A stretch of 36,913 nt of DNA from a virus. The notes under the pieces are model-generated. The model saw only the letters and a list, made by a program, of their open reading frames with translations. It was not told the origin of the DNA and searched no databases. Location of the stretch: IMG/VR virus record IMGVR_UViG_3300047163_000044, positions 1-36,913 of that record; one strand, 5' to 3'. Of the stretch, positions 5,132 to 29,135 are shown one piece after another. The first letter of the stretch is position 1; each line of letters starts with the position of its first letter. The position numbers and the translations under genes are program-made.

Positions 5132-5697
5132 CGTTCAATCTCCATAAATAATACGGCAAGCCATGATAGAGTTTTGAAAAAGTCCAATCGGACAACCCCT
5201 TGACAGGGACGCTGGGAAGCGGTTAAACTCCCCAGCGTGGTCATAGCGGCATGGACGTGCCCCATGAACCTCAAGCAGTCTGTAGAAGCAGTCCTGCTTG
5301 GTTTAAGGATGATAGTCCAAAAACTATCAAATTTCATCCCTGAATGTATGTGCTTCTCCCGGCCTGATGTAAACGCCGAAGACATAACTGCATCGTAGCA
5401 TCTAGGGAACTTGCGCTCTGTGTTGGGGCGTTTCCGACCTGCGGTAAGCTTCACGGCAAATCCGCGCAACCAGTCCCCCACTTGAATGTGGGAAAATGCC
5501 AAGTGATTGCCGGTATGCCGGTGGCAGGGTGGGGTGGCTCCCATACGACAATAAGCAGGCTGGCTATGTGATGCTGAAGTGGGAGCGAGATACGACCGCA
5601 GACATGCCTTGAAGCCGATAGCGAGATCGGCAAGCGTCAAAAAGTACGCAGGCAGGCATACAGCGGAAAGCGGCCTATTCTCTAAATTATGTATCAC
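5128..5697 (-). CDS. Questionable ORF (189 aa, His/Cys/Arg/Ser-rich). It may instead be a non-coding, GC-rich structured segment.
   Basis: The GTG start overlaps the upstream stop (GTGA). Composition is atypical for this genome: about 11 His, 7 Cys, few Lys/Glu/Asp and many AGG/CGG/CGA codons. The segment is visibly more GC-rich than its neighbours. No family was recognised. Confidence 0.35.
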   Translation of the reverse strand: MIHNLENRPLSAVCLPAYFLTLADLAIGFKACLRSYLAPTSASHSQPAYCRMGATPPCHRHTGNHLAFSHIQVGDWLRGFAVKLTAGRKRPNTERKFPRCYDAVMSSAFTSGREKHIHSGMKFDSFWTIILKPSRTASTDCLRFMGHVHAAMTTLGSLTASQRPCQGVVRLDFFKTLSWLAVLFMEIER

Positions 5698-6128
5698 GCT
5701 GCCTCCCCCATAATATCGGATATGCGCTGCTTAAGCTGTTCATCGGTCACGCCGGGGAGTATTTTCCTGCAAATGAACTCCACCACCTTGTTATAGAATT
5801 GTTCAAATCGCGGCTCATCCATAGCCCCAAAAGAAATACTCAGGGGCTTTGGATAGGGATTGCCGTTTATGTCATAGCGTTCGACGTATAGCCCCACCCC
5901 TATCTTGATGACATCCAGCATGTCATCCATCGTCGCCCATCGCGTCTGATTATGATAGACTTCGCTCATAAGTAAAAAGAACAGATTATGAAAAGCAATC
6001 TTGCGCGGCCTTCTGAATGTGGCCGATACAATTTCCCCCTGTTTCATAGCGTCTATGGAATCCTGAGAAATAGGATCGCACGCCACAAGGGAATTGCCTT
6101 TTTTCATAATCCGCACTTCCGTTGCCAT
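5694..6128 (-). CDS. DUF1367-like phage protein (144 aa)
   Basis: FRRPRKIAFHNLFFLLMSEVY and LSISFGAMDEPRFEQFYNKVVEFI resemble, from memory, the conserved blocks of the lambdoid DUF1367 family (R.prn..fHrkfFal...; KSISFa.MdE.eFe.lY). Confidence 0.7.
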   Translation of the reverse strand: MATEVRIMKKGNSLVACDPISQDSIDAMKQGEIVSATFRRPRKIAFHNLFFLLMSEVYHNQTRWATMDDMLDVIKIGVGLYVERYDINGNPYPKPLSISFGAMDEPRFEQFYNKVVEFICRKILPGVTDEQLKQRISDIMGEAA

Positions 6129-6130: not shown

Positions 6131-7093
6131 TTAGCCCTTCGCAAACGGTATCTTGCTGATAGGCGCTTTCACAGAATCGGCATAAGCCTGCTGCGCTCCG
6201 ACGATATGCGGTGGTATTTCGGATTCGTCAGGCTCATCTGTAACGGTTTCGGAAAATCCTGGCCCGAAACTCGCAGCAACGTCATCTTTTGCCGTAAACT
6301 GCTTTTTCATGCGCCCATAGCGATTGCGTATTTCCTGCACTGCAAGTTCATCATGCTCATTACCCGTTGCCTTCATCGCGTCAATGATAGTTTGGTGCGT
6401 GAAAAGCCATTCGTCTAGCTCATCTAAGGTAGCCGCGCTTTCAAAGTCTTTGATGACAGTGGAAATAAAGGTATTGCGCAGGCTGGCATTTTTGAAATAG
6501 GATTTGACAAAAGGCATTTCCTCCACTTCATTTGCTTGTGCCATTTCATCGCTTGTATAAAGACCAGAAAGCTCTTGCGGAAATGCCTTGCGCAAAGCAA
6601 GGGATTCGGCGCATTTTGCAATCATTACATCGCCCATTTTCTGCCACATTGCGGTCAAATCGCCTTCTTTCTTACGCTGTGCATAGGCATCGAATCTGGC
6701 AACGCCCCAGCAGGGTTCTTTGAAGTCATGACGAACTACACCCACTTTAGAGGCAATGGGAGGAGCCTTTGAAAGCCATACGTCTTTCCATTCGCCATCT
6801 TCTCCGCACCAAAACGGGCCGACCTGTCCAGCATATTTTCCTGACCGCTCAGCAACCAATCGGAATCCGTCAATAGAGGTCTGCGTGGACATTACTTCGC
6901 GCTTAAGGTTACCGTCCCACCGTTTTACGGCGTAAATTTGCCGGGCAAATGGGTTAAGGCCGGTTGCCTTGCACTGCATCATGAAAAGCTTTAACTCATT
7001 GTCAGAAGCCCCCTTACAAATAGTATCTTTAATCAAAGCTACTTCCTCAGTAGAGAATGGCTTCGGTTCCATTGTTGCAACTGCGGTATTCAT
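6131..7093 (-). CDS. recT: RecT/Bet-family single-strand annealing recombinase (320 aa)
   Basis: [40 protein letters not shown] and [28 protein letters not shown] match the RecT (phage Bet, TIGR01913-like) signature. Confidence 0.9.
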
Positions 7094-9599: not shown

Positions 9600-9845
9600 A
9601 TGCTTTTAAAAGATTTTAGAAAACACAACAGGTTAAGTCAAGTCGAGATGTGCTTCGAGCTTTCTGCTTTTATTAAAAAAACGCTAGGAATGGAAAAAAA
9701 GCTAGCGCAACGGACACTTGCCTATTGGGAGCTCGGCGTTATGCCGAGAAGATTCTGGCGCGATGTGATTGAAAAATACTCCGACGGCCAAGTCACCGCA
9801 GATGATTTCGCTCATACGCCCGCGCCAAAGCAGGCGGGGGCTTAG
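9600..9845 (+). CDS. Cro/YdaS-like helix-turn-helix regulator (81 aa)
   Basis: RLSQVEMCFELS...AQRTLAYWELGVMP...IEKYSDGQVTADDF fits the small Cro-like HTH pattern. It shares the C-terminal G/S-Q-V-x-A-x-DF motif with 12246..12428. Confidence 0.7.
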   Translation: MLLKDFRKHNRLSQVEMCFELSAFIKKTLGMEKKLAQRTLAYWELGVMPRRFWRDVIEKYSDGQVTADDFAHTPAPKQAGA

Positions 9846-10177
9846 TGGCAATCAAGCATAGCCAGCTTATACGTGACGCCATTGAATATTTGTCCTTAAA
9901 CGGCTATTTCGTCTGGGAAAATAAAACAGGCGGCACGCCCACCGACCGCGGCGGCTTTGTTACCTACGGCAAGCCTGGCAGTGCTGACATCATAGGGATC
10001 ATGAGCGACGGGTCGGGGCGGCACCTGGAAATGGAAGCGAAAATCCCGCCCGACACCCAAAGTAAAAAACAAAAAGTTCATCAGATGATGATCGAGCGCC
10101 ATGGCGGGGTATATATCGTTTTCAGGACTATTGAGGAACTGGCTGTTGCATTGCAGAGGCATAGGCGCTCGCCATAG
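9845..10177 (+). CDS. VRR-NUC domain nuclease (110 aa, PD-(D/E)XK fold)
   Basis: The GTG start overlaps the HTH stop (TAGTG). GKPGSADIIGIMSDGSGRHLEMEAKIPPDTQSKKQKVHQMMIERHGGVYIVFRTIEEL matches the VRR-NUC pattern G.pD...(x)n..E.K....S..Q......G. Confidence 0.8.
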   Translation: MAIKHSQLIRDAIEYLSLNGYFVWENKTGGTPTDRGGFVTYGKPGSADIIGIMSDGSGRHLEMEAKIPPDTQSKKQKVHQMMIERHGGVYIVFRTIEELAVALQRHRRSP

Positions 10178-10524: not shown

Positions 10525-10718
10525 ATGAGTCCTTTCTCTTTTCCTATATCAATGGTTGCAATAATCGCCCTATCACAACCATCCATTAAAGCAGAGGCTT
10601 GGTCTTTTAAAAACGGGGTCATGCCCTTCATAATTCCCGGCGCATCATCATAAAAGCGATGTTGCATGTACGCGGCTATCGCTTGCACCGCTGCATTGCG
10701 TAAATCTTCATGTGCCAT
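10521..10718 (-). CDS. Hypothetical protein (65 aa), paralogue of 7278..7496
   Basis: MAHEDLRNAAVQAIAAYMQHRF...MTPFLKDQASALM aligns with the 72-aa protein of the other leftward operon. It makes a TAATG overlap with the upstream gene. Confidence 0.6.
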   Translation of the reverse strand: MAHEDLRNAAVQAIAAYMQHRFYDDAPGIMKGMTPFLKDQASALMDGCDRAIIATIDIGKEKGLI

Positions 10719-10852
10719 TATTCATCCTCCCCATAGAGTTCATAGTGTTCGCGGGCGTCATCTTCCCGTTGTTGGTCACGGCGCTCACGCTTTTCCTCCG
10801 GCGTCACTTTCGACACGAAGGGCGTTATCGGGACTGTTTCGTGGTTGCTCAT
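10718..10852 (-). CDS. Highly charged, acidic small protein (44 aa), below the ORF-track cutoff
   Basis: Hand translation gives MSNHETVPITPFVSKVTPEEKRERRDQQREDDAREHYELYGEDE. It makes an ATGA overlap with the stop of the 317-aa repeat protein. Confidence 0.45.
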   Translation of the reverse strand: MSNHETVPITPFVSKVTPEEKRERRDQQREDDAREHYELYGEDE

Positions 10853-11802
10853 GCCGCCTCCTCAATAAGCTGAATGAGTTTGTCCGCCATTTTGATATAC
10901 GCCGCACTCTCCGCCGCACTCACCGCCGCACTCTCCGCACTCCACGCCGCACTCTCCGCCGCACTCCTCGCCGCCCTCGCCGCACTCCACGCCGCACTCC
11001 TCGCCGCACTCCACGCCGCACTCTCCGCCGCACTCGCCGCACTCCTCGCCGCACTCCTCGCCGCACTCTCCGCCGCACTCGCCGCCGCACTCCACGCCGC
11101 ACTCTCCGCCGCACTCCTCGCCGCCCTCGCCGCACTCCTCTCCGCCGCACTCACCGCCGCACTCCACGCCGCACTCCTCGCCGCACTCCACGCCGCACTC
11201 TCCGCCGCACTCGCCGCCGCCCTCGCCGCACTCCTCGCCGCACTCTCCGCCGCCCTCGCCGCCGCACTCCTCGCCGCATTCCACGCCGCACTCCACGCCG
11301 CACTCGCCGCACTCCTCGCCGCATCTAAATTTTTTTCATTTTTTGGCTCGCCTTTCGTAAGCGGGCAAATTGCTTCAGCGCATTGCTTTATGGCTTTGCG
11401 GCACCGGATGATTACCTCTTGCACTTCCGGGGAGTCTGAATCTTTCAAAATAAGATTCTCCGTCAGATTCCAGTAAATGAATTTGTACCCCACAAGGGAC
11501 AGATCGGAACCCGGTTTTATTGCCCTTAGGAAGCGCTCCGGCCACTTAACGGAGCCCTTTTTAGGGAGTCCCTCAAAGATAGTATCTTCAAGATGTGCCA
11601 GCATTTCAGGGATGCCGAATTGCGTCTCATATTCTTTGTGGTTGGAACCCTTAATAAGACAACCCACCGCGCAGCCCTTGCCATCACTCCAGTAGCCATA
11701 CCCTTGCAAAAGGTTGTCAGCTTTGCGGTGTTTCGCCATCTCATTAATGACGGCCTTTTTGATTTTTGGGTCGTTGTGGTAAGCGCGCAATGTATTCGTC
11801 AT
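10849..11802 (-). CDS. Protein of unknown function (317 aa). A globular N-terminal domain of about 160 aa is followed by about 140 aa of (S-A-A-X)n tetrapeptide repeats and a short C-terminal helix.
   Basis: SD ggagaa precedes the ATG at 11802. The non-repetitive N-terminus (..YHNDPKIKKAVINEMAKHRKADNLLQGYGYWSDGKGCAVGCLIKG..FGIPEMLAHLEDTIFEGLP..WPERFLRAI) fixes the strand and frame. The repeat reads SAAWSAARSAAESAA... with X = W/R/E/V/A/N, and the tail is YIKMADKLIQLIEEAA. Confidence 0.8.
   Translation of the reverse strand: MTNTLRAYHNDPKIKKAVINEMAKHRKADNLLQGYGYWSDGKGCAVGCLIKGSNHKEYETQFGIPEMLAHLEDTIFEGLPKKGSVKWPERFLRAIKPGSDLSLVGYKFIYWNLTENLILKDSDSPEVQEVIIRCRKAIKQCAEAICPLTKGEPKNEKNLDAARSAASAAWSAAWNAARSAAARAAESAARSAARAAASAAESAAWSAARSAAWSAAVSAAERSAARAARSAAESAAWSAAASAAESAARSAARSAASAAESAAWSAARSAAWSAARAARSAAESAAWSAESAAVSAAESAAYIKMADKLIQLIEEAA
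10901..11323. repeat. Tandem array with a 12-nt period (GCCGCACTCNNC on the + strand, with some 9-nt units), about 423 bp
   Basis: The core gccgcact recurs almost without change about 30 times. The region is open in five of six frames, which gives track ORFs 10666..11328, 10862..11296, 10874..11476 and 10920..11150 in addition to the real gene. Confidence 0.95.
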
Positions 11803-11828
11803 ATCAATTCTCCGTAGGGTTATTGGTG

Positions 11829-12116
11829 TTAATCCTTGATGACACCTTCGCCAGTGAAGGCAATGAGGCGAAAATCACCGAAATCAATCTCATAAATATC
11901 GCCGCGACGAAGACCCTTGCGAATCTGAAAATCAGCACGCCGAAAAAGCCTCAATCCATTGTGCGATTCTACTTCTTCGCCGCCGAAAATTCCGCGCGGC
12001 TCATGCATCTTAATGATGTCACTTTCTGAAAAAGGACAGTCGCATTCAATGTCACAGTTCCATGCTGCCGCGAGTTGCATAAATTTTTGTTCGGCGGTTT
12101 GTTGTGCGGTGTCCAT
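11829..12116 (-). CDS. Hypothetical protein (95 aa), first gene of the short leftward operon
   Basis: A strong SD aggagg lies 7 nt upstream of the ATG at 12116. No HTH or other motif was recognised. Confidence 0.7.
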   Translation of the reverse strand: MDTAQQTAEQKFMQLAAAWNCDIECDCPFSESDIIKMHEPRGIFGGEEVESHNGLRLFRRADFQIRKGLRRGDIYEIDFGDFRLIAFTGEGVIKD

Positions 12117-12147
12117 AAAATCGACCTCCTAGTTGTTTACTTCCCTC

Positions 12148-12175
12148 ATTATGCATAACGCAAACGCATTTGCAA
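12148..12175 (-). promoter_or_regulatory. Candidate leftward promoter (-35 TTGCAA, 16-nt spacer, -10 CATAAT)
   Basis: The reverse complement of 12148-12175 reads TTGCAAatgcgtttgcgttatgCATAAT. It lies about 20 nt upstream of the aggagg SD of 11829..12116. Confidence 0.45.
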
Positions 12176-12210
12176 ATAAAAAAATGATGCGAAATGCAAA
12201 ATAATTTTGC
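12168..12210. promoter_or_regulatory. Operator-like perfect palindromes in divergent control region 2
   Basis: ATTTGCAAAT (12168-12177, perfect 10-mer) and GCAAAATaATTTTGC (12196-12210, perfect 15-mer). A further TTGCAA lies at 12221-12226. The GCAA/TTGC half-sites match those of control region 1. Confidence 0.55.
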
Positions 12211-12237
12211 TTGCAGGATTTTGCAATATAATATAAT
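12211..12237 (+). promoter_or_regulatory. Candidate rightward promoter (TTGCAG, 15-nt spacer, TATAAT; overlapping TATAAT boxes at 12227 and 12232)
   Basis: ttgcaggattttgcaatataatataat ends 9 nt before the ATG at 12246, which leaves little or no leader. Confidence 0.4.
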
Positions 12238-12245
12238 AGTGAGAT

Positions 12246-12428
12246 ATGAAACTGAAAGAATATCTCGACAAACACGATTTGAGTTTAAGGCAATTCTCCG
12301 AAAAAACGGGGATTCCTTACCACACGCTTTATTGCTATTTGAATGGGGAGAGAATACCCCGCAAAAAGCAAATGGCATTGATAATTTGGCACACTAAAAG
12401 CCAAGTGAAGGCCGGAGACTTTTTTTAG
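12246..12428 (+). CDS. Cro-like helix-turn-helix regulator (60 aa)
   Basis: LSLRQFSEKTGIPYHTLYCYLNGERIP...SQVKAGDFF has the same architecture and C-terminal motif as 9600..9845. It is the first gene of the long rightward transcription unit. Confidence 0.7.
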   Translation: MKLKEYLDKHDLSLRQFSEKTGIPYHTLYCYLNGERIPRKKQMALIIWHTKSQVKAGDFF

Positions 12429-12447: not shown

Positions 12448-12630
12448 GTGCAGGGAGAGCCAGTAACATTATTAGACCTAGTCCCGTCGCGTCATCGTAC
12501 AAATGCGTTGCGCGTTATCAATCCGAAATGCTGGATATGCCTAGCTGATGCGACCCACTGGCTATATGGGGCTGTATGCGAGACGCACCGCGACCCTATG
12601 AAGGTTAAGGAGGCATTGCATAGCGCATGA
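12448..12630 (+). CDS. Hypothetical small protein (60 aa), possible zinc finger
   Basis: A GTG start is preceded by gggggagag. It contains CWIC...C..H. Confidence 0.5.
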   Translation: MQGEPVTLLDLVPSRHRTNALRVINPKCWICLADATHWLYGAVCETHRDPMKVKEALHSA

Positions 12631-12983
12631 CACTTAGAAAAGCATTGAAAGCGGCGGGATATAAGCCCCTCAGCGAAGGAGAGGAAGCGCTTGCGCGTCA
12701 TATGACGGAATATAACATACCATTTTCCCGTCAATTTAAAATCTGTGATGAACGCAACTGGACATCTGATTTTTACATCAACTGTGAACCGCTCCCGATT
12801 TTAATTGAAGTGGAGGGAGGAACTGCATTTGGCCTTTCCCGCCATTCCAAAGGTGACGGTTATGAGAATGATTGCAGGAAATACAATACGGCAATTTTGC
12901 TGGGTTTTAGATTGCTTCGTTTCACCACAAAACAAGTGAAGTCTGGTCATGCAATTGATATAATTCGGGGGGCGCTAACATGA
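12627..12983 (+). CDS. PD-(D/E)XK endonuclease-like protein (118 aa; DUF559/Vsr-like fold)
   Basis: WTSDFYI...PILIEVEGG...YENDCRKYNTAILLGFRLLRFTTKQV fits a D...E.E...K core followed by the G(w/f).(v/l)lRf tail of this fold. It makes an ATGA overlap with the upstream gene. Confidence 0.6.
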   Translation: MTLRKALKAAGYKPLSEGEEALARHMTEYNIPFSRQFKICDERNWTSDFYINCEPLPILIEVEGGTAFGLSRHSKGDGYENDCRKYNTAILLGFRLLRFTTKQVKSGHAIDIIRGALT

Positions 12984-13372: not shown

Positions 13373-13533
13373 AACCAAAAACCCAAGGCACAATGCATTG
13401 TCATGAACCGGCAACGCTGGAAAACCATCATCACCACATTTTATATCTGCTAGGAGCAATTAAGCGTTTAGAGCAGCGCCTTGCGAAAATAGAGGGCAGC
13501 ACCAAGATTCACCAAGAAGAGGGAGGGGTTTAA
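13369..13533 (+). CDS. Hypothetical small His-rich protein (54 aa), below the ORF-track cutoff
   Basis: Hand translation gives MKPKTQGTMHCHEPATLENHHHHILYLLGAIKRLEQRLAKIEGSTKIHQEEGGV. It makes an ATGA overlap upstream and a TAATG overlap downstream. Confidence 0.5.
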   Translation: MKPKTQGTMHCHEPATLENHHHHILYLLGAIKRLEQRLAKIEGSTKIHQEEGGV

Positions 13534-14123
13534 TGAGGGTTTTGGTGGCCTGCGAATTTTCAGGGGTTGTGCGTGATGCTTTTATATCCAGAGGTCATCA
13601 TGCCACATCATGTGATATTTTACCATCTGAACTCCCCGGCCCTCATTTAATTGGTGATGTTAGGGGTTATATTGAGAGGATTGCCTATTCTTTTGACATG
13701 ATGATTGCCTTCCCGCCATGCACCCACTTATGCGTGTCCGGTGCACGTTGGTTTAAAGATAAAAAACAGGAACAGAAAGAGGCTATAGCATTTGTTGAAA
13801 CGCTTTGGAATGCAAATATACCCCGTATTGCCATAGAGAACCCCATTGGAGTGCTTTCTACACGTTCCCGGTTAGGCAAGCCCACCCAGATAATTCAGCC
13901 GTGGCAGCATTCGCATTGCGAAACCAAGGCAACATGCTTGTGGCTTAAAAATCTACCGTCGATCTACCCGTCGAACAATGTAAGATCTGATATGCTGACG
14001 TTACCAAAAAACAAGATTAACCGCATTCATCACATGCCGCCAGGGCCTGACCGGGCAAAAGAGCGCTCGCGCACTTATTGGGGGATAGCGCAAGCTTTCG
14101 CGCAACAATGGGGAAACCTATGA
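13533..14123 (+). CDS. Minimal DNA (cytosine-5) methyltransferase-like protein (196 aa) with no obvious target-recognition domain
   Basis: VLVACEFSG is motif I-like, IAFPPCTHLCVSG is motif IV (PC)-like, and RIAIENP is motif VI (ENV)-like. The C-terminal block is RSRTYWGIAQAFAQQWG. At about 200 aa it is far shorter than canonical C5 methyltransferases. Confidence 0.65.
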   Translation: MRVLVACEFSGVVRDAFISRGHHATSCDILPSELPGPHLIGDVRGYIERIAYSFDMMIAFPPCTHLCVSGARWFKDKKQEQKEAIAFVETLWNANIPRIAIENPIGVLSTRSRLGKPTQIIQPWQHSHCETKATCLWLKNLPSIYPSNNVRSDMLTLPKNKINRIHHMPPGPDRAKERSRTYWGIAQAFAQQWGNL

Positions 14124-16574: not shown

Positions 16575-16942
16575 CGGAATACTCCGAATCTTTGGCCAAT
16601 AAAATATGCCATAGAGTATCACAAGGCCGCACAATCAGGTCTATATGCGCTGAGTTAAATGTTTCACACACAGCGATTTACAAGTGGTTGGCAGAAGAGG
16701 ATAAAAAAGACTTCGCTGAACACTACACGAAGGCTAGAGACATACAAGCAGATGTATATGCTGATGATATTATAGATATAGCTGACCAAGCCACGGATGC
16801 GGGTCTTGCAAGAGTCAGAATAGACGTGAGAAAATGGCATGCAGGCAAAACAAAGCCAAAGAAATACGGGGACAAGCAATTGGGTGATGCTGATAATCCT
16901 ATGAATATTATAGGTAGTATAAAGTGGCAGGGCGACGTGTAG
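16571..16942 (+). CDS. terS: Terminase small subunit (123 aa)
   Basis: An N-terminal HTH (RTIRSICAELNVSHTAIYKWL) is followed by YTKARDIQADVYADDIIDIAD...RIDVRKWHAGKTKPKKYGDK, which is typical of small terminase subunits. It lies directly upstream of terL. Confidence 0.8.
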   Translation: MTEYSESLANKICHRVSQGRTIRSICAELNVSHTAIYKWLAEEDKKDFAEHYTKARDIQADVYADDIIDIADQATDAGLARVRIDVRKWHAGKTKPKKYGDKQLGDADNPMNIIGSIKWQGDV

Positions 16943-18216
16943 ACATAGTAATCCCTTATATTCCGCGCCCTCTACAGCGCCAGATACACAACAGCCTCAA
17001 ACGATTTAATATACTGGTATGCCACAGGCGGTTTGGCAAAACAGTTTGCGCGATTAATGAGATAATCAAGTCGGCATCGCGTTGCCCGCACGAAAACCCG
17101 CGCTTTGCTTATATTGCGCCGTTTTTTAATCAGGCCAAAACAGTTGCATGGGATTATGCCAAGTACTTCACCTCTGTTATTCCTGGGGTTAAGGTAAATG
17201 AGTCTGAGCTGAGGATTGACCTCCCAGGGGGGGCTCGCATATCGCTATATGGCGCGGATAATCCTGACAGGCTGCGTGGGATGTATCTGGACGGTGTTGT
17301 GCTTGACGAGTACGCCGATATGTCGCCGCGCCTGTGGTCTGCTGTTATAAGACCAGCGCTCTCTGATAGACAGGGATGGGCATTGTTTATAGGCACGCCT
17401 AAGGGGCGGAATCAGTTTTGGGAGATATACGACCAGGCCAGCCGCGATAATGACTGGTATGCGGCAATATTTAAAGCAAGCCAAACTGGTATACTATCGC
17501 CAGATGAGCTGAGTGGCGCTCGCAAGCATATGAGTGACGACCAATATGAGCAGGAGTTTGAGTGCTCATGGCAGGCCGCTTTAATCGGAGCTTATTACGG
17601 ACGCGAGATAAATACGCTTGAGACTAAGGGGCGCATAACGATGGTGCCTCATGAGCCATCGTTGCCGGTTTATACCGCCTGGGATTTGGGTGTTGATGAT
17701 GCGACTGCAATATGGTTTGCACAGACAGTTGGGCCCGAGGTGCGAGTCATTGATTACTATGAGAATTCCGGTTGCGGTTTGGAGCATTACGCCAAGCTGA
17801 TTAAATCCAAGCCTTATGTGTATAAAGAGCATTTTCTGCCTCATGATATTAAGGTGGTAGAGTATGGGACTGGACGCAGCAGGCTTGAGACTTTGCAAGG
17901 GTATGGCCTTACTGCTACAACCCTTCCCAATGAACGTATAGAGGACGGTATAAACGCTTCGAGGCTTTTGTTGCAAAAATGCTGGTTTGATTTGGATGCT
18001 ACCAAGCGTGGAGTGGAGTGTTTAAGGCAGTATCAACGCGAATTTGACGATAAGCTCAAGACCTTTAAAAACAGGCCTAGGCATGACTTTTCCAGCCATG
18101 CTGCGGATGCATTTAGGTATTTGGCTATGGGATTGCCAGCGGCTACAGCACCAGTGCAGACTTATAGAGACTCTCAGTTTTTTAGCTCAAGTCCGACATC
18201 ATGGATGGGTCGATGA
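16924..18216 (+). CDS. terL: Terminase large subunit (430 aa)
   Basis: CHRRFGKTV is Walker A-like and GVVLDEYADM is Walker B. The C-terminal nuclease region includes YTAWDLGVDDATAIWF, FLPHD and SSHAADAFRYLA. The GTG start overlaps terS by 19 nt. Confidence 0.93.
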   Translation: MAGRRVDIVIPYIPRPLQRQIHNSLKRFNILVCHRRFGKTVCAINEIIKSASRCPHENPRFAYIAPFFNQAKTVAWDYAKYFTSVIPGVKVNESELRIDLPGGARISLYGADNPDRLRGMYLDGVVLDEYADMSPRLWSAVIRPALSDRQGWALFIGTPKGRNQFWEIYDQASRDNDWYAAIFKASQTGILSPDELSGARKHMSDDQYEQEFECSWQAALIGAYYGREINTLETKGRITMVPHEPSLPVYTAWDLGVDDATAIWFAQTVGPEVRVIDYYENSGCGLEHYAKLIKSKPYVYKEHFLPHDIKVVEYGTGRSRLETLQGYGLTATTLPNERIEDGINASRLLLQKCWFDLDATKRGVECLRQYQREFDDKLKTFKNRPRHDFSSHAADAFRYLAMGLPAATAPVQTYRDSQFFSSSPTSWMGR

Positions 18217-18395
18217 AAATTTTGGAATATATTTTCCTGCCGCCTTTAAAGCCGGAAACGCATGAGAAAGTATACGTTAACGGACACCATATATATACAA
18301 AGTCGAATTGGACATATACCGATTGTAGATTTAATGATAAACATGTGATGCGGCGAAATTTCTGGCGCAAAGTAATGCGATTGGTGGGATTGTGA
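18213..18395 (+). CDS. Hypothetical protein (60 aa)
   Basis: The start is taken at ATG 18213 (ATGA overlap with the terL stop) rather than the track start at 18201. Confidence 0.5.
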   Translation: MKILEYIFLPPLKPETHEKVYVNGHHIYTKSNWTYTDCRFNDKHVMRRNFWRKVMRLVGL

Positions 18396-18586
18396 TTGAC
18401 CTTTTAAAGATATGCCAGGTAGAGACGCCTAGGAAATATGGCGCTCCTCAACGCGACTTCGATGCCTTAGGAAAGGCTATGTATAAGGCGTGGTTTGAGC
18501 ATGAGGGCAACCGCCATCACTTTACACAAGCGGAAATCCATGATCTGATTTTATGGATGCGCACCAAAATCAAGGATGAACTATAG
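18392..18586 (+). CDS. Hypothetical protein (64 aa)
   Basis: The GTG start makes a GTGA overlap with the previous stop. Confidence 0.5.
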   Translation: MIDLLKICQVETPRKYGAPQRDFDALGKAMYKAWFEHEGNRHHFTQAEIHDLILWMRTKIKDEL

Positions 18587-18612
18587 TTTATTGTTAATGC
18601 GATAGAGCTCGG

Positions 18613-18643
18613 TTGCAATAATGCAGAGCAGTATTGTTATAAT
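18613..18643 (+). promoter_or_regulatory. Candidate promoter upstream of the portal gene (-35 TTGCAA, 19-nt spacer, -10 TATAAT)
   Basis: TTGCAAtaatgcagagcagtattgtTATAAT has a perfect -10 box, but the spacer is long. Confidence 0.3.
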
Positions 18644-18652
18644 GATCATCGT

Positions 18653-18793
18653 TCACCCATTGCGGCTAAAGCTTTTCCTGCATTTATCGCAGCAGAATTT
18701 TGCGTCTTTTCGGGCATAAAACTCCTTTCCGCATGTTTTACATGTGATTAACTCGCCTTTTAAAGGCCTTTCGCAATGAGGGCATTGTTTCAT
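18653..18793 (-). CDS. Antisense-oriented zinc-ribbon protein (46 aa), below the ORF-track cutoff
   Basis: Checked codon by codon: MKQCPHCERPLKGELITCKTCGKEFYARKDAKFCCDKCRKSFSRNG. It has CxxC...CxxC plus the (F/Y)C(S/C)xxCR tail common in small phage zinc-ribbon proteins. The + strand is non-coding here. Confidence 0.5.
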   Translation of the reverse strand: MKQCPHCERPLKGELITCKTCGKEFYARKDAKFCCDKCRKSFSRNG

Positions 18794-18837
18794 ATGTCCG
18801 AATTTTACCGCAAAAATATCGGACAGGCAAGCAGTAT

Positions 18838-20859
18838 ATGGCTAAAAAAAGGCAATCAGATGATGACGATCTTAAAAAGATGCGTGAGCGATTTGGATTA
18901 TGCGCTGAGCGTGAAAGCACTAACCGTGATTTATGGGTTAAAAATGTCGATATGTCGTCTTCGACAGATCAGTGGCCGCAAGACGTGGTTAACTTTCGTG
19001 GTTCCGGCCGTCCTCGCCTGACTATCAATCGTCTCAACGGCACTTGCAAGCAGATTGAGGGTGACTACCGGCAGAATGAGCTAGCTATAAACGTATTGCC
19101 AGCGTCGTATGAGGCTAATGACGATACCGCCGAGATACTGGCTGGAATAGTTCGACACATCGAGCAGGCGTCAAATGCCAAGACGGTTTATCTGCATGGT
19201 ATTCGGTACGCTTCAAGAGGTGGATGGGGATGGGCCCGGGTATTGCCTGAATACGCCAACGAGGGAACGTTCGAGCAGGAACTTCGCATACGAGCCATCT
19301 ACAACACTTTGACGGTCTATTGCGATCCGAAAGCAGTCATGCCCACCCGGCAGGATGCGCGTTATATGTTTGTTTCGGAGATGGTAGATAAGGACGAGCA
19401 TCTCGCGGATTACCCCGATTCGGATTTGCGTTATACCGAGTCTTTGGAAGATTTTGATGATGCGTTTGAGAACTGGGTTGATAGCGAAGGCGACCGCATA
19501 AGGAGAGTGGAGTATTTCACCAAGGAATTTATTCCGGCAAAGTTTGTTCTGTTTGAAAATGGAGCAACCGTAGAGATTCAGGGCGATGATGAACTGGAAG
19601 CGCTTCAGCAGATTGGCTGGAAACCGAAACGGGAACGTATGGGCAAACGTACACAGATACGGTGGAGGAAATGCATCGCCAATGAGGTGTTAGACGAAAA
19701 AGTCTACAAGATGCCTTATATACCTCTTGTTCCGTTTTTGGGCGAAGAGATAAACGTAAAGGGCAAGATAACCCTCCACAGCGCTATTGCTTATGGCATT
19801 GACCCTCAGTTGATGCTTAATTACTGGAAGTCCACTGCGACTGAGTCTGTGTGTTTGATGCCGAAAGCGCCTTATGCTTTAACGCCAAAACAGATTCAAA
19901 ACCACGAGATGCAATGGAAGAATGTGAATGTGAATTCACAGCCTTTCATTATGTATAATCCCGACCCTCAGGCGAACAATGGCGCTCCTCCTCAGCGTCT
20001 ACCCATGCCCGAGCAGCCTATTGGCGAAATGTCAATGGGTGGTGGATCGGAGCGGGACATAGCTTACACCACGAATACCTTTGATGCTCAATTAGGCGCT
20101 CCCGGACAAGAGGTTTCGGGTGTGGCTTTGGGCGAGAGACAGCAGCAAGGCACAACGGGCAACTTCCTGTTTATCGATAACGGCAAGATTGCGATTGAGC
20201 ATATAGGTCGCATATTACTTAGCTTTATTCCGCTGATTTACGACACTGAGCGTGTGGTTAGAATTCTCAGCATGGAAGGCAAGACCGATACCGAAACTAT
20301 TAACAAGGAAATCTACAATCCCTTGCTCGGTACGACTGAAATCCTTAACGACATAACAGTCGGGGAATATCAAGTAGTAGTTGAGGCTGGCAAAGCATTT
20401 GCGACTCGTCGTCAGGAAGCAACAGACGGCATGCTGAAATGGGCGCATGAATTCCCTCAGCAAGCCCCACTAGTCGCGGATTTGGTTATTGAAAACATGG
20501 ACGTGCCGGGCGGAACGCAGATAGCCGAACGTATTCGCCGGAGTCTGCCGCCGCAGGTTATCAATGCCCCTGATAGTCCCGAAGGTCAGAAAGCCGCTGC
20601 GCAGGCGCAACAGCAACAGCAGCAGGCTCAAGCCATGCAACAGCAGATGATTCAGGGTAAATTGCAGGAAGAGCAGGGAAAGAACCAGGCCAGCATGATT
20701 AAATCGCAAGCCGATGTTATTAAGTCCCAAGCGGAAGTAACCAGAGCTAAGGCCGATGTGATGATGACGGCAATCGATATGCATAATAAGCAGGCGGAGC
20801 ATGAGGCAATGATTTTGGATAGAACGAGAATCAATCCCCAACAGACGAGTAACCCATGA
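18838..20859 (+). CDS. Portal protein, P22-like (673 aa)
   Basis: Size and position fit (after terL). The N-terminal block is QWPQDVVNFRGSGRPRLTINRLNGTCKQIEGDYRQNELAINVLP. There is a long C-terminal Gln-rich helix (AAAQAQQQQQQAQAMQQQMIQGKLQEEQGKNQ...), like the P22 portal barrel. Confidence 0.92.
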   Translation: MAKKRQSDDDDLKKMRERFGLCAERESTNRDLWVKNVDMSSSTDQWPQDVVNFRGSGRPRLTINRLNGTCKQIEGDYRQNELAINVLPASYEANDDTAEILAGIVRHIEQASNAKTVYLHGIRYASRGGWGWARVLPEYANEGTFEQELRIRAIYNTLTVYCDPKAVMPTRQDARYMFVSEMVDKDEHLADYPDSDLRYTESLEDFDDAFENWVDSEGDRIRRVEYFTKEFIPAKFVLFENGATVEIQGDDELEALQQIGWKPKRERMGKRTQIRWRKCIANEVLDEKVYKMPYIPLVPFLGEEINVKGKITLHSAIAYGIDPQLMLNYWKSTATESVCLMPKAPYALTPKQIQNHEMQWKNVNVNSQPFIMYNPDPQANNGAPPQRLPMPEQPIGEMSMGGGSERDIAYTTNTFDAQLGAPGQEVSGVALGERQQQGTTGNFLFIDNGKIAIEHIGRILLSFIPLIYDTERVVRILSMEGKTDTETINKEIYNPLLGTTEILNDITVGEYQVVVEAGKAFATRRQEATDGMLKWAHEFPQQAPLVADLVIENMDVPGGTQIAERIRRSLPPQVINAPDSPEGQKAAAQAQQQQQQAQAMQQQMIQGKLQEEQGKNQASMIKSQADVIKSQAEVTRAKADVMMTAIDMHNKQAEHEAMILDRTRINPQQTSNP

Positions 20860-21203
20860 GCGGAATAACGATAAAGAACTTTTCTGATTATGAGACAGTT
20901 CCCCTCACCTTGACGGCTAGTACCGCAGGAACTGTTGCCTTTAAACTGCCTGGGTCATGGGAATTGCCCGATGTTATGGTAACAAATAGCGGGTTGACGG
21001 TTGCATTTGTGAATTTCTGCAACAGCGGCAGGATCGTCAATGCGCAATCGCCAGCGACAACCGGAACTATAGGCGCAACACCGGTTTTGGCAGGTGAAAC
21101 TATGATTCTATCAAAGAACAAGGGCGCAACTTATAATGACACGTGCTGCGCAATCAGCACTGGTACGCCGACGTTGTATTTTACTTCGGGAGTCGGATCG
21201 TGA
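20856..21203 (+). CDS. Hypothetical beta-rich protein (115 aa) in the head module
   Basis: It makes an ATGA overlap with the portal stop. No family was recognised. Confidence 0.65.
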   Translation: MSGITIKNFSDYETVPLTLTASTAGTVAFKLPGSWELPDVMVTNSGLTVAFVNFCNSGRIVNAQSPATTGTIGATPVLAGETMILSKNKGATYNDTCCAISTGTPTLYFTSGVGS

Positions 21204-21457
21204 AGCAGGTTATCGGCAAGCGCGTGATGTGCATCTATCCTTGGAAAGCAAATGAAGAGCTTATATCGAAGGGTGGAATTATCATGCCTGATGAAACAAA
21301 AGATAAACCCAATAATCTTGAGGTTACTCTTTCTGGAATTGAAGGCATTAACGCCGGTGACCGCGTGGTATTCAACAAATACCACGGCACTACGATTACC
21401 ATCGATAATCAGGAGTATCTTTTTCTCAAAGAGGAAGAGATTCTAGGATTAATATGA
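21200..21457 (+). CDS. groES: GroES/Cpn10-family co-chaperonin homologue (85 aa)
   Basis: The GTG at 21200 (GTGA overlap, SD gggag) gives VKQVIGKRVMCIY..SKGGIIMPDETKDKPNNLEV...INAGDRVVFNKYHGTTITIDNQEYLFLKEEEILGLI. This aligns with E. coli GroES [68 protein letters not shown]. Confidence 0.85.
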   Translation: MKQVIGKRVMCIYPWKANEELISKGGIIMPDETKDKPNNLEVTLSGIEGINAGDRVVFNKYHGTTITIDNQEYLFLKEEEILGLI

Positions 21458-21579
21458 AGGCCTGTAATGATGAGAAATTCTTACGCCCTATTCGCAATTT
21501 TCTAAATTCTCAGCCAAAGGGTACTATTGCGTATTATAAAGATATCGAAGGAGATTTTTTCTTGAAGATGGCGTTCTAA
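21454..21579 (+). CDS. Possible small protein (41 aa)
   Basis: It makes an ATGA overlap with the groES-like stop. The sequence is MKACNDEKFLRPIRNFLNSQPKGTIAYYKDIEGDFFLKMAF. Confidence 0.35.
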   Translation: MKACNDEKFLRPIRNFLNSQPKGTIAYYKDIEGDFFLKMAF

Positions 21580-21624
21580 AACTGAGAGAAAGAAATTATT
21601 AACAAAATTGAAAAGGATAAGCAT

Positions 21625-21804
21625 ATGGCAACCGATTACGGCACTAAAATGAAGAGCGGCAAAGACGGCTCCGAAGTAGGTCAGGGTTTTGGTGAACCCC
21701 AGAAGCGTATGAAGGGCGCTCCCAAAGCCACTAACCATAGCGAACACAACGAGATGATGCATAAAATGATGCCCCCAGGCTATAAGGGCGATTGCGGCTA
21801 TTAA
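21625..21804 (+). CDS. Hypothetical small basic protein (59 aa), below the ORF-track cutoff
   Basis: The sequence is MATDYGTKMKSGKDGSEVGQGFGEPQKRMKGAPKATNHSEHNEMMHKMMPPGYKGDCGY. SD aaaagga is present, and the stop abuts the next ATG. It is preferred over the antisense track ORF 21502..21762. Confidence 0.45.
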   Translation: MATDYGTKMKSGKDGSEVGQGFGEPQKRMKGAPKATNHSEHNEMMHKMMPPGYKGDCGY

Positions 21805-21805
21805 T

Positions 21806-22147
21806 ATGGCGTCCTGGACTAGGAATGCCCCTAAGACAAGTGATTATAGAACGGATCAGGAATATTGTGACGCCATAAATGCTTTTGGCGAATTACACGG
21901 CATTCATATGATAGGTGGGCCACTTGTTGCTCCACCAAAGTTCGTCAAACCTAAAGTTTTATCTCCGTCAGAAATCTATCATTCCAGTCCTGAAATTATC
22001 CATTATTTCAAAGAAAACAGACTTAATCATTACAGTGGTGATTACCGTCCATTATGGAAAAAGCTTATTTACCCTGTAATGAGATTTTTATCCCACCGAT
22101 GGAACTACCTAACTCTATGCAAATTAAATAACCTTCACGGCCAATAA
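21806..22147 (+). CDS. Hypothetical protein (113 aa)
   Basis: The ORF is in the late-operon orientation and tightly packed. Confidence 0.6.
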   Translation: MASWTRNAPKTSDYRTDQEYCDAINAFGELHGIHMIGGPLVAPPKFVKPKVLSPSEIYHSSPEIIHYFKENRLNHYSGDYRPLWKKLIYPVMRFLSHRWNYLTLCKLNNLHGQ

Positions 22148-22149
22148 CT

Positions 22150-22326
22150 ATGACCCCAGAATTAGCTGCTAAGGAATTTTGGGCGATAAACGAGGCTTGT
22201 AAAAACAAAGAAGATCTAAAAGCTATTAGTTCGCGTGTAGTGCATCTAGGAAAAATACAAAGCAGATTTTCTCCTGAGCAATGGACAAAATATTCCATTG
22301 CCTTTTCCGCGCTAGCCGGCAGTTAG
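22150..22326 (+). CDS. Hypothetical small protein (58 aa), below the ORF-track cutoff
   Basis: The sequence is MTPELAAKEFWAINEACKNKEDLKAISSRVVHLGKIQSRFSPEQWTKYSIAFSALAGS. The ATG lies 2 nt after the previous stop. Confidence 0.45.
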   Translation: MTPELAAKEFWAINEACKNKEDLKAISSRVVHLGKIQSRFSPEQWTKYSIAFSALAGS

Positions 22327-22370
22327 CAACTTCGTAGGCAGTTTAAGCCCGTATAATCAAGGATAATACT

Positions 22371-23243: not shown

Positions 23244-23256
23244 AAGGATTTTTAAC

Positions 23257-24492: not shown

Positions 24493-24501
24493 GGAGGATT
24501 T

Positions 24502-24900: not shown

Positions 24901-25220
24901 CCCGTGGCATTCCTTTTGATCCAAGCAGGATCGCGCAGCTAACCCTTTCTCCTGTCCAGGTCGCAGCCAATACAACTGCGGAACAGACTTTTACGGTTAA
25001 TGGCCTGAAAACCGGAGATATTATTCTGGCTTTGAACAAACCTACAAATCAGGCGGGACTTGGTATAGTCAATTATCGGGTAAGCGCAGCGAACACACTG
25101 GCGGTTGCTTTTTCCAATAATACAGCAAGCCCTATAACCCCTACTGCATCTGAAAAGTATCTAGTCGCAGTCATGCGCCCGGATTCACTTGAAACGGATG
25201 GCAGTATACAATTCAGATAA
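24897..25220 (+). CDS. Hypothetical beta-rich head-module protein (107 aa)
   Basis: It makes an ATGA overlap with the upstream gene. No family was recognised. Confidence 0.65.
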   Translation: MTRGIPFDPSRIAQLTLSPVQVAANTTAEQTFTVNGLKTGDIILALNKPTNQAGLGIVNYRVSAANTLAVAFSNNTASPITPTASEKYLVAVMRPDSLETDGSIQFR

Positions 25221-25231
25221 GGAATTAAAAC

Positions 25232-25876: not shown

Positions 25877-25901
25877 TAACTTTATATAGGAATATCTTCA
25901 T

Positions 25902-29133: not shown

Positions 29134-29135
29134 TT

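Follow-up and report, generated by a model that had tools for sequence, protein, structure and literature searches.

In a novel P22-like phage, a genuine gene of an early operon carries a homogenised Ser-Ala-Ala-X array and belongs to a very large, unnamed family

The window, that is, the whole stretch of 36,913 nucleotides analysed here, corresponds to positions 1 to 36,913 of the IMG/VR virus record IMGVR_UViG_3300047163_000044. It carries a leftward operon in which one gene encodes an N-domain, an alanine-rich tandem array and a cap helix. The features of the locus are the following.

12148..12175, minus strand: sigma-70-like promoter, TTGCAA, 16-nt spacer, CATAAT (by match to the consensus only, 9/12)
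11829..12116, minus strand: first ORF of the operon, 95 aa, without family match
11810..11813, minus strand: ribosome-binding site GGAG, 7 nt upstream of the ATG at 11802 (direct reading)
10849..11802, minus strand: CDS of the repeat gene, complete, 317 aa plus stop (ORF list, sequence)
11347..11802, minus strand: all-alpha N-domain, aa 1-152 (alignments; AF2 pLDDT mostly above 90)
10900..11325, minus strand: in-frame tandem array of about 36 units AGT-GCG-GCG-NNG, aa 160-299 plus two flanking Ala
10852..10905, minus strand: C-terminal cap helix AAYIKMADKLIQLIEEAA, aa 300-317 (family alignments, AF2)
10718..10852, minus strand: 44-aa ORF downstream of the repeat gene, overlapping its stop by 4 nt (ATGA)

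The earlier note describes the ORF at 10849-11802 correctly, together with its translation, the motifs of the N-domain and the cap (YIKMADKLIQLIEEAA). The second place of the gene in a leftward operon is also borne out, since it follows the ORF at 11829-12116, has its own GGAG and a 4-nt overlap with the next ORF, and is preceded by a promoter-like site. The overlap of the ATG of the 44-aa ORF with the stop codon of the repeat gene suggests translational coupling within one operon. The promoter-like site overlaps a perfect palindrome, ATTTGCAAAT, at 12168-12177, and operator control of the operon is plausible, judging from the palindromes in the sequence. The translated frame is that of the SAAX peptide: it joins flanking modules that are both conserved, and in homologues other codons specify the same peptide. 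ORFs in other frames or on the other strand (RRTP, ECGV, ALSAAL) were rejected as by-products of the repeat. The repeat gene is a genuine early-operon gene in a novel P22-like phage. The portal protein shows at most 35% identity to those of known phages. Neither the locus nor 20 kb of structural genes matched any of 50,697 phage records by megablast. A role in host takeover or anti-defence, which had been proposed from the position of the gene, finds no support in the evidence gathered here.

At the DNA level, the array has a 12-nt period with 36.6 copies between 10900 and 11323 (81% matches, score 461; Tandem Repeats Finder), together with a 45-nt higher-order period. The two-unit pattern AGTGCGGCGNNGAGTGCGGCG, with at most two mismatches, occurs 29 times in the window, every time within 10900-11325, and was never found in 100 shuffles. 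Exact block duplications of 63 nt and 54 nt are present inside the array, and the copy number of about 36 is the number as assembled. Within aa 160-299, all 31 Ser codons are AGT and all 74 Ala codons are GCG, in agreement with what had first been noticed; likewise, Arg is always AGG (14/14) and Glu always GAG (9/9). The X codon is TGG, AGG, GAG, GTG or GCG, with a single AAT, and X is mainly R, E or W. Across 12 further window genes, AGT makes up 12% of Ser codons, GCG 25% of Ala codons and AGG 14% of Arg codons. The uniformity of the array therefore reflects common descent of the units rather than codon preference. With a GC content of 76%, the array stands above both the N-domain (47%) and the window as a whole (48%).

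The units of the array differ in length. Twenty-two units have four residues, three have 3 (two SAA, one SAE) and one has 5. A replacement at the Ser position marks three runs of 7 residues (SAARAAR twice, SAARAAA once); in two double units, each 8 residues long, N or A stands there. Hence, the description of the array as a tetrapeptide repeat, (SAAX)n, suits the 22 four-residue units but not those of 3, 5, 7 and 8 residues. The claim that X is the only variable position has to be abandoned, since unit length (3, 4, 5 and 7 residues) varies too. In composition, the array is 53% Ala, lacks Thr and is W- and R-rich; its 14 R, 9 E and 1 D amount to 24 charged residues out of 140 (17%), for a net charge of +4.

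The architecture recurs widely: an all-alpha N-domain with the GKGCAVGC motif is followed by an Ala-rich array and then by a cap helix. A word search retrieved 831 homologues, with E-values down to 7e-77, and a profile search reached 3,946 protein clusters at 50% identity, the top 150 all being 140-302 aa long. Family genes were found in 441 IMG/VR viral contigs and at 37 genome loci from at least eight phyla, MAGs included. The window protein, which forms a singleton cluster without a name, is 48-74% identical to 75 members. In cultured Xanthomonas phages, N-domain identity drops to 25%, yet a SAAX array of 110-150 aa is retained. Members from cultured phages include gene K1pha_60 of Xanthomonas phage KPhi1 and protein WHB31219.1 of NEB7. 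Thus, the family is very large, unnamed and predominantly phage-borne. The similar hypothetical proteins that the earlier note mentioned do exist, as hundreds to thousands of homologues with the N-domain, an Ala-rich W/R/E/D/Y array and the cap. The inference of a recently expanded, homogenised 12-nt repeat stands as far as homogenisation and recent common descent are concerned, as the codon counts indicate; the array is not a recent expansion private to this gene, being family-wide even at 25% N-domain identity. The locus thereby gives access to an uncharacterised family whose clusters number in the thousands; its phages span at least eight bacterial phyla and include the cultured, genetically tractable Xanthomonas phages.

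Family alignments show that W38, G43, C44, C48, E59, W87 and P88 are invariant in the N-domain, as is the GKGCAVGC motif, and that H25, D29, K42, H55, Y58, E72, D73, E77 and D100 are nearly so. The window protein carries the whole signature, namely W38, GKGCAVGC (41-48), H55, E59, FGIP..LA.LED.IFEGLP and WP.RF. Such a C-x3-C motif together with conserved His, Asp and Glu may form a metal-binding or active site, if the pattern of conservation is a guide. In the cap, A301, M305 and L312 are nearly invariant across the family, and the cap signature A-Y-x-x-M-A-D-K-L-I-E-L-I is present in the window protein. Many members continue beyond the cap with unrelated tails. This disagrees with a ClpX-type C-terminal degron ('-EAA' end), which was considered and rejected.

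In contrast with its conserved flanks, the array varies greatly. Comparison of homologues shows a conserved arrangement of N-domain and array with a repeat number that differs between relatives. Between members, the length of the array varies from 0 to about 155 aa, the 140 aa of the window array being among the longest. It reaches at least 20 aa in 307 of 342 complete members and falls below 20 aa in the other 35. The existence of these nearly array-free members implies that the rod predicted for the array is dispensable for folding of the head, and perhaps for function. Several repeat types occur (SAAX, AAYAAD, AARDAAW, ADLAYR). Over the 342 complete members, the arrays are 49% Ala with a median Pro+Gly content of 1.6%. 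Their net charges lie between -16 and +6, with a median of -1; 159 arrays are negative and 112 positive. At least 5% of the residues are aromatic in 246 of the 307 arrays. For comparison, a survey of low-complexity regions found W, Y, F and R to be under-represented in those of prokaryotes and phages generally, the largest phage region having 115 aa (PMC6821194).

In each homologue, homogenisation has left essentially one Ser codon (AGT, AGC, TCG, TCA, TCC or TCT) and one or two Ala codons, particular to that gene. As a result, across homologues, the SAAX-type peptide is encoded from both Ser codon boxes and from all four Ala codons. The array of each gene has been built from one founder DNA unit, and these units are synonymous but differ between genes. 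It follows that slippage or recombination of the DNA renews the array, whereas the helical peptide pattern is maintained by selection. Translational throttling by AGG codons was rejected as an explanation, considering that AGG makes up 14% of Arg codons in other window genes and that the Ser and Ala founder codons of homologues differ. Genes with 100% identical N-domains have arrays of different lengths (69, 83, 97 and 100 aa in one set; 151 versus 40 or 47 aa; 56 versus 22 aa). Some length differences among near-identical metagenomic genes may result from assembly collapse. Paralogues on one contig have similar heads and unrelated arrays. On the other hand, Xanthomonas phage isolates from Serbia, Mexico and the USA carry identical arrays, so that turnover is not fast on short time scales. 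The regeneration of the same 4-residue helical repeat from differing synonymous units in each lineage, with homogenisation in each gene, is an unusual pattern. It offers a natural system for studying how selection on protein structure shapes tandem DNA repeats.

Searches in Pfam, NCBIfam and PADLOC gave nothing above chance for the window protein; a YicC-like_N match (E 0.022), seen in just two of 76 members, was set aside. No member of the family bears a name or was assigned to a Pfam, NCBIfam or PADLOC family. No family match to the defence components of PADLOC-DB appeared at E up to 1. A profile search of the PDB returned only low-complexity tails of eL24 (E 0.04 or worse), and Foldseek against the PDB gave best E-values of 2 for the full model and 0.5 for a short member, with TM-scores not above about 0.25. 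When the model of the short member was compared with BFVD, a 248-aa uncharacterised phage protein with the same head fold was found (E 5e-8, TM-score 0.73 normalised to the query), which is another uncharacterised member of the family. Weak to moderate matches to phrog_3416, phrog_8332 and phrog_18326 (E 1e-3 for the window protein, 1.9e-10 for a divergent member) cover the last head helices and the array; these PHROGs are unannotated and the N-domain of the window protein lies outside the matches. In the literature, nothing relevant was found on the peptide motifs and repeat-related topics.

The AF2 model of the window protein (pLDDT 83.5, pTM 0.71) shows a compact head, in which the cap joins the N-domain, and an antiparallel pair of helices, each about 75 residues long (156-229 and 237-316). 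The same head is predicted for a short natural member of the family (pLDDT 87). The very long Ala-rich helix envisaged in the earlier note is thus recovered in the prediction as two helices folded as a hairpin. The array would project from the head as an antiparallel hairpin of two helices, resembling an alanine zipper, with arms of about 75 residues (about 11 nm); this prediction applies to a monomer and is forced by the contact between cap and head. The cap helix is predicted to dock back on the N-domain (pLDDT about 96). Arm residues of the array have pLDDT values of about 65-88, and the turn near aa 230-236, where no turn-like sequence is seen, has 49. Bulky residues recur with a period of 3.9 in the window array and of 3.5-3.75 in 43 of 72 family arrays. 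Because the window period is 3.9 rather than 3.5-3.7, the W/R/E stripe winds round the helix instead of lining one clean face. The family may serve as a natural system for the folding of Ala-based helical hairpins of arbitrary length.

Several known systems bear some likeness to this organization. In alanine zippers and Alacoils, such as that of the OprI lipoprotein (PF11839), long helices pack via Ala and Ser at helical periodicity. Many family arrays share a 3.5-3.75 period, and PF11839-like matches, all weak, occur in 3 of 76 members (best E 0.0018), the window protein having no match to PF11839 Alanine_zipper at E up to 1. An Alacoil is an antiparallel helix pair with a small residue at a core position of heptad (3.5) period; AF2 predicts an antiparallel hairpin here, and the window period is 3.9. 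Unlike the OprI type, a fixed structural lipoprotein, the present array is a hypervariable tandem DNA repeat inside a globular phage protein. Type I antifreeze proteins include the winter flounder 'Maxi', an Ala-rich helical hairpin with an 11-residue repeat containing Thr. Like Maxi, the array is very rich in Ala (above 50%), with short repeats and a long helix folded back over more than 10 nm. An antifreeze protein was nevertheless rejected, in view of the 3.9 period, the lack of Thr and the absence of a PDB sequence or fold match; the protein studied here is encoded by a phage, cytoplasmic, and has a globular head and a period of about four residues with W, R and E. Designed Ala-based peptides with Glu/Lys or Glu/Arg salt bridges from i to i+4 resemble the array in setting charges four residues apart on an Ala backbone, a classic way to obtain a stable isolated helix. 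ER/K single alpha-helices, their natural counterpart, are rigid spacers of defined length in which charged residues make up well over half of the sequence. With just 17% charged residues, 53% Ala, prominent Trp and a predicted paired hairpin, the window array does not belong to this class.

In-frame repeats are also found in EBNA1 (Gly-Ala) and in the streptococcal alpha-C and M-like proteins, which are surface or immune-evasion proteins with known selective agents. Homogenisation within the gene, varying copy number and conserved flanking domains are common to these and to the present family. The differences are that an intracellular phage early protein is concerned here, that its 4-residue unit is among the shortest for structured repeats, and that one peptide unit has been rebuilt from differing codons in separate lineages. 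DksA, TraR and GreA/B combine a globular domain with a coiled-coil hairpin that enters the RNA polymerase secondary channel, and TraR-like early proteins occur in phages. The resemblance lies in the globular head, the long antiparallel hairpin and the C-terminal helix. Membership of this group was rejected, since no Pfam match was found in 76 members, C-x3-C is not a C4 zinc finger and no conserved acidic tip is present. In addition, a hairpin of 0 to about 75 residues per arm is incompatible with the fixed depth of the secondary channel. Finally, polymorphic-toxin immunity proteins with 'Imm5-like' Ala/Trp/Arg/Asp repeats, considered as candidate relatives, were discarded, as the window protein, 76 members and six divergent AARDAAW-type members gave no Pfam Imm match.

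Family genes keep company with other small early genes, in clusters that adjoin genes of replication and recombination. Across loci, the neighbours include Prim-Pol or primase, PIF1, SNF2 or DEAD helicases, and ERF, RecT or YqaJ. The neighbours found in the window are RecT and NinB. Clustering of 5,288 flanking ORFs from 115 loci did not reveal a conserved partner gene, the commonest flanking gene being a DNA methyltransferase found at only 9 of these loci.

Considering these properties, the reading tentatively preferred here, which may well be wrong, is that of an effector whose head is conserved and bears a helical rod, fast-evolving and adjustable in length, and which acts early in infection. 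The array would grow, shrink and re-homogenise by replication slippage or unequal recombination, involving 12-nt units, 9-nt units and multi-unit blocks, and selection at the protein level would filter for a helical Ala-based pattern with periodic aromatic (W/Y) and charged (R/E/D) side chains. The head, with its invariant C-x3-C and its conserved His, Asp and Glu, would be a target-binding or catalytic module acting early, amid DNA replication and recombination genes. The rod would be a length-adjustable, rapidly evolving projection, serving as spacer, steric element or multivalent interaction surface. The family would then be a natural system for the use of adjustable-length rods by phages in early infection and, if the head were an enzyme or a counter-defence factor, it would add largely to the known phage early functions. 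It is tempting to go one step further and to imagine a new class of phage early effectors whose specificity or reach evolves by repeat turnover instead of point mutation, with a possibly metal-dependent head and a rod stripe recognising a periodic target (ssDNA or RNA, a host filament, an oligomeric defence sensor). This extension is quite doubtful. If true, Ser-Ala-Ala-X would be the programmable scaffold with the shortest unit known, convergently rebuilt in many phage lineages.

There is a lesser but real chance that the array is a tolerated low-complexity insertion, a GC-rich, microsatellite-like slippage expansion in a permissive loop joining the last helix of the N-domain to the cap helix; the head would do everything and the array would be near-neutral. 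Lengths of 0 to 155 aa with 35 nearly array-free members out of 342, several unrelated repeat types, array positions without conservation, a net charge spanning -16 to +6 and an array GC content far above that of the flanks at almost every locus are what such an insertion would give. However, about 90% of complete members have an array, those from different phyla and those with a head identity of only 25% included, and the same peptide motif arises from both Ser codon boxes and all four Ala codons. Its composition is consistently helical (Pro+Gly 1.6%) and its periodicity helix-like. Furthermore, W and Y are enriched, although they are rare, costly, one mutation away from a stop codon and depleted in ordinary low-complexity regions (PMC6821194). 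It may be imagined, under the insertion model, that selection merely removes versions that misfold or aggregate.

A second alternative concerns structure and is compatible with any functional reading. The array might be one unbroken helix of about 140 residues (about 21 nm) in a domain-swapped dimer, the chains being antiparallel and the caps sitting on the partner heads, so as to form a dumbbell. The predicted turn, at pLDDT 49, has no Gly, Pro or turn motif and merely lies at the array midpoint. From peptide chemistry, Ala-based sequences with E/R pairs at i and i+4 are strong helix formers. Against the swap, members with short arrays (15-30 aa from head to cap) must fold back on themselves, and the prediction covers the monomer only. 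Judged from the weak turn and the cap-to-head constraint of the model, a continuous helix in a swapped dimer is as possible as the hairpin; on balance, the swapped dimer is unlikely.

The idea of a nucleic-acid-like surface, put forward in the earlier note, also gains no support from the present evidence, and a rod binding nucleic acids or polyanions appears improbable. In such a model, a Trp/Tyr and Arg stripe would stack on bases and contact phosphates, and the protein, assisting phage replication and recombination, would coat or bridge ssDNA or RNA. Genes for single-strand annealing proteins, primases and helicases do lie next to family genes, the window array is rich in W and R (net charge +4), and the rise per 4-residue unit would be about 6 Å, near the nucleotide spacing of extended ssDNA. 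But more family arrays are net negative than positive (159 versus 112), the AAYAAD type has no basic residues, profile searches with the window protein and 76 members detected no known nucleic-acid-binding domain, and the 115 loci have no conserved partner gene.

An assembly artefact, in which the array or its copy number would stem from short-read mis-assembly, is very improbable. It is true that 34 of 114 metagenomic loci stop inside the array, that the GenBank records of XapPhi1 and XapPhi2 do the same, and that identical heads with differing array lengths could reflect collapse. Still, arrays are found in hundreds of independent assemblies, among them complete chromosomes and one assembly with a record name pointing to ONT reads. 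They also occur in cultured phages whose genomes are finished, where isolates obtained independently have identical arrays, and in the window the frame stays intact through about 36 units as far as the conserved cap. The array itself can therefore be taken as real, about 36 copies being the assembled count.

Programmed hypervariation, either as the target of a diversity-generating retroelement or as a phase-variable contingency locus, is suggested by a variable X in an otherwise uniform repeat and by the differing repeat number of relatives but has next to no chance of being right: no second (template) copy of the unit exists anywhere in the window, no reverse transcriptase was found among the 20 window ORFs scanned against PHROGs, the variation at X is not adenine-specific (TGG, AGG, GAG, GTG, GCG), homologues of all lengths remain in frame through to the cap, and the Xanthomonas isolates from three countries have identical arrays. 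Since the units are of 12 or 9 nt, slippage never shifts the reading frame. On the practical side, the array breaks short-read assemblies, in about 30% of the metagenomic loci retrieved and in two GenBank phage genomes.

The repeat gene is real, lies in the early region and belongs to a huge unnamed family whose head and cap are conserved and whose array is of a helical type. Its minus-strand ORF (10849-11802, 317 aa) carries the N-domain motifs, the array of Ser-Ala-Ala-X units (SAAX, where X is mainly R, E or W) and the cap YIKMADKLIQLIEEAA, all as in the earlier reading. A GGAG is found 7 nt 5' of the ATG, and in the sequence ATGA the stop codon shares bases with the start codon of the following ORF. 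Long ORFs also arise from the repeat in alternative frames and on the opposite strand (RRTP..., ECGVECG..., ALSAALLAAL...). These were rejected as coding, because the N-domain is joined to the cap by the SAAX frame alone. Both parts are conserved across hundreds of homologues, which encode the same array peptide with different codons, by which the other frames would be wholly altered. Thus, the SAAX frame is the translated one.

Tandem Repeats Finder detects in the array a 12-nt period with 36.6 copies as assembled (10900-11323; 81% matches, score 461) and a second, higher-order period of 45 nt. A two-unit pattern occurs 29 times, always within 10900-11325, and never in 100 shuffles. The units mostly have 4 residues, some 3, 5 or 7, and the array holds exact block duplications of 63 nt and 54 nt. 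Between residues 160 and 299, Ser is always AGT (31/31), Ala GCG (74/74), Arg AGG (14/14) and Glu GAG (9/9), whereas in 12 other window genes these codons represent 12%, 25%, 14% and 43% of their own codon families. This uniformity argues for recent common descent of the units rather than for a codon preference, in agreement with the homogenised 12-nt repeat proposed earlier. The GC content is 76% in the array, 47% in the N-domain and 48% in the window. At 10900-11325, G is strongly enriched on the minus strand, which codes for the array (GC skew about 0.54). Such a G-rich non-template strand in a transcribed 425-bp tract may favour R-loop formation or replication slippage.

A word-index search with residues 1-174 gave 831 proteins of 125-302 aa, all unnamed and without Pfam domains. 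When 1.84 billion cluster representatives were searched with a profile, 3,946 clusters were obtained at E<=1e-3 and 1,051 at E<=1e-30; each of the best 150 of the 3,946 is 140-302 aa long. Relatives are carried by 441 IMG/VR contigs and by 37 loci in species-representative genomes, nearly all MAGs, from Alphaproteobacteria, Gammaproteobacteria, Planctomycetota, Acidobacteriota, Bacteroidota, Chloroflexota, Bdellovibrionota, Saccharibacteria, Actinomycetota and others. In nearly all of them, the N-domain is followed by a periodic Ala-rich array and then by the cap (A-Y-x-x-M-A-D-K-L-I-E-L-I). Hence, the architecture that the earlier note mentioned for bacterial hypothetical proteins is conserved, and repeat number differs between relatives. 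Across 342 non-redundant complete members, array length ranges from 0 to 155 aa (median 60.5) and is below 20 aa in 35 of them; six arrays reach 140 aa, which places the window array among the longest. Arrays are of the Ser-Ala-Ala-[W/R/E] type in 169 members, Ala/Tyr/Asp in 53, Ser-free Ala/Trp/Arg/Asp in 52 and otherwise Ala-rich, including (A-D-L-A-Y-R), in 33. A branch from cultured Xanthomonas phages, with just 25% N-domain identity, has kept a SAAX array, 110-150 aa long, in which X is E, Q, R, W or D; its gene lies between the primase and helicase genes. In one IMG/VR locus (L054, IMGVR_UViG_3300020050_007701), an unrelated second tandem repeat, (KAKRR)n, follows the cap; in locus L029, the array contains a masked N run, then an apparent frame change.

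In the head, K15, H25, D29, K42, C44, C48, H55, Y58, E59, E72, D73, E77, D100 and S102 are invariant or nearly so. For some 150 aa, this number of conserved polar residues is high; the C-x3-C motif, together with two His, suggests a putative metal site or active site. The earlier note knew of no assigned function, and indeed the N-domain matched no characterised family. Pfam (76 members and six divergent ones), NCBIfam, PADLOC and a PDB profile search gave no relative, and Foldseek against the PDB gave none for the models of the window protein and of P0055, a natural short member (175 aa) for which the same head is predicted (pLDDT 87). The matches obtained were a phage protein from BFVD, itself uncharacterised (E 5e-8), and unannotated PHROG families, the latter over the array.

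AlphaFold2, run on the window protein with a 76-sequence alignment, gave a model (pLDDT 83.5, pTM 0.71) with an all-alpha N-domain (pLDDT mostly >90) and a cap (pLDDT about 96). The long Ala-rich helix suspected earlier is predicted as two very long helices, 156-229 and 237-316 (arms pLDDT about 65-88, turn 49). Read most simply, this model would have the N-domain and the returning cap helix packed into a compact head, with a rod, a helical hairpin of two antiparallel arms about 11 nm long, projecting from it. Family arrays contain 49% Ala, 14% Ser and a median of 1.6% Pro+Gly, with at least 5% aromatic residues in 246 of 307; bulky residues recur with a period of 3.5-3.75 in 43 of 72 arrays and of 3.9 in the window array. 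Such a composition typifies an Ala-based helix with i-to-i+4 charged/aromatic contacts rather than a flexible linker.

The favoured reading, a tentative one, is that the head would be the effector and that the rod would evolve rapidly and serve as a spacer or an interaction surface whose length can be adjusted. Its main rival, in which the array is an insertion of low complexity that is tolerated, appears unlikely. In a survey of >1,500 prokaryotic and phage proteomes, phage LCRs average 33 aa with a maximum of 115 aa, and W, Y, F and R are strongly depleted in LCRs (PMC6821194). Since the predicted turn has no turn-like sequence, the array could also form a continuous helix in a domain-swapped dimer; this geometry, rather doubtful in our judgement, would fit any functional reading. 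A rod that binds nucleic acids is improbable. An anti-defence role, which the earlier note linked to the position of the gene, is neither favoured nor contradicted by these results.

The family arrays evolve in concert, with selection at the peptide level. Each array uses essentially one Ser codon (AGT, AGC, TCG, TCA, TCC or TCT, depending on the gene) and one or two Ala codons (GCG, GCC, GCT or GCA), the peptide being unchanged. No single synonymous change converts one Ser codon box into the other. The two boxes and the gene-specific codons show that arrays are founded and expanded anew, time and again, from single units. Array turnover outpaces head substitution but is slower than that of a contingency locus. 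N-domains that are 100% identical accompany arrays of 69, 83, 97 and 100 aa, of 151 versus 40 or 47 aa, and of 56 versus 22 aa. Yet identical 284-aa proteins occur in KPhi1 (Serbia), phiXaf18 (Mexico) and MYK3, and identical 327-aa proteins in NEB7, XapPhi3 and XapPhi4, from which XapPhi6 differs by one N-domain substitution, with its array unchanged. The occurrence of two or three paralogues in some elements suggests duplication, then array diversification. On JGI contig Ga0556625_000949 (locus L133), P0330, P0349 and P0360 have similar N-domains and completely different arrays, as have P0251 and P0287 on one 1,010,550-bp ENA contig; at the locus level, a pair (L023 and L028) is seen on record OY728594.2.

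The Ala-repeat array systematically breaks assemblies and leaves a gap in annotation, and part of the metagenomic length variation may reflect assembly collapse. Contigs end within the array in 34 of 114 loci (L006-L115), and so do the deposited 'complete' genomes of XapPhi1 (PP391659.1) and XapPhi2 (PP391660.1). That the very existence of the array is an assembly artefact is highly improbable. Programmed hypervariation can practically be set aside, as a pattern search for a DGR template found no second unit copy outside the array in the window and, the units being multiples of 3 nt, slippage never changes the frame. In XapPhi4 and XapPhi6, the family gene is present and unannotated.

The window is a P22-like podovirus without a close sequenced relative. 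It encodes a portal (phrog_156, 3e-126), a large terminase, a major head protein, ejection proteins and a transglycosylase-containing ejection or tail protein; the P22-like structural module spans 16924-35748. Against 50,697 deposited phages, megablast gave no match and the portal is at most 35% identical to that of any known phage. The lineage is unsampled. The repeat gene comes second in a block of leftward ORFs, which continues with many small ones to RecT (6131-7093) and NinB (5694-6128). A 129-bp gap (12117-12245) parts this block from a rightward HTH gene.

Features of the early regions of the window
9600-9845, plus strand: HTH-like protein, 81 aa
9845-10177, plus strand: 110-aa protein, weak phrog_824 match alone
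12175-12148, leftward: sigma-70-like site in the 12117-12245 gap, TTGCAA / 16 nt spacer / CATAAT
12168-12177: perfect palindrome ATTTGCAAAT, overlapping the leftward -35
12196-12210: near-palindrome GCAAAATAATTTTGC, within the divergent control region
Near 12219-12230: additional TTGCAA-like half-sites, divergent control region
12246-12428, plus strand (rightward): HTH gene, 60 aa (phrog_8, phrog_2967, phrog_925)
12627-12983, plus strand: phrog_503 protein, function unassigned (3e-28), rightward early region
13533-14123, plus strand: phage DNA methyltransferase (phrog_757, 2e-63), rightward early region

With a leftward sigma-70-like site overlapping a palindrome in the gap, the label 'early leftward operon' used in the earlier note is reasonable. 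Control of the leftward promoter through these candidate operator palindromes is plausible. No cI-like repressor was found between the two divergent promoters (12117-12245). The plus-strand pair at 9600-10177 breaks the otherwise leftward early block; it could be a cassette that was inserted, or a further regulatory unit.

Among 115 loci, no neighbour is conserved, the commonest being a DNA methyltransferase (9/115). The relatives' gene sits in small unannotated early-gene runs near Prim-Pol or primase and PIF1, SNF2 or DEAD helicases, with ERF, RecT or YqaJ, dUTPase and methyltransferases as further neighbours. In lytic (Kantovirinae) as in lambdoid-type phages, it thus acts like an independent accessory gene of the early region for DNA metabolism. 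Variable in-frame tandem repeats are already known, and so are Ala-rich coiled coils. The combination of an orphan head, a structured 4-residue repeat, its convergent re-creation by different codons and a pan-phylum phage distribution appears undescribed in the libraries and literature searched, as does the family itself. Because cultured Xanthomonas phages carry the gene, the family is a solid and tractable lead. A methyltransferase, the commonest though still a rare neighbour elsewhere, also lies in the rightward early region of the window (13533-14123). Another repeat protein, of the pentapeptide type (ADLSGANL-type), recurs in such early regions in five loci; it lies about 0.3 kb downstream of a family member in L072 and L073 (6852-7491 in L073).
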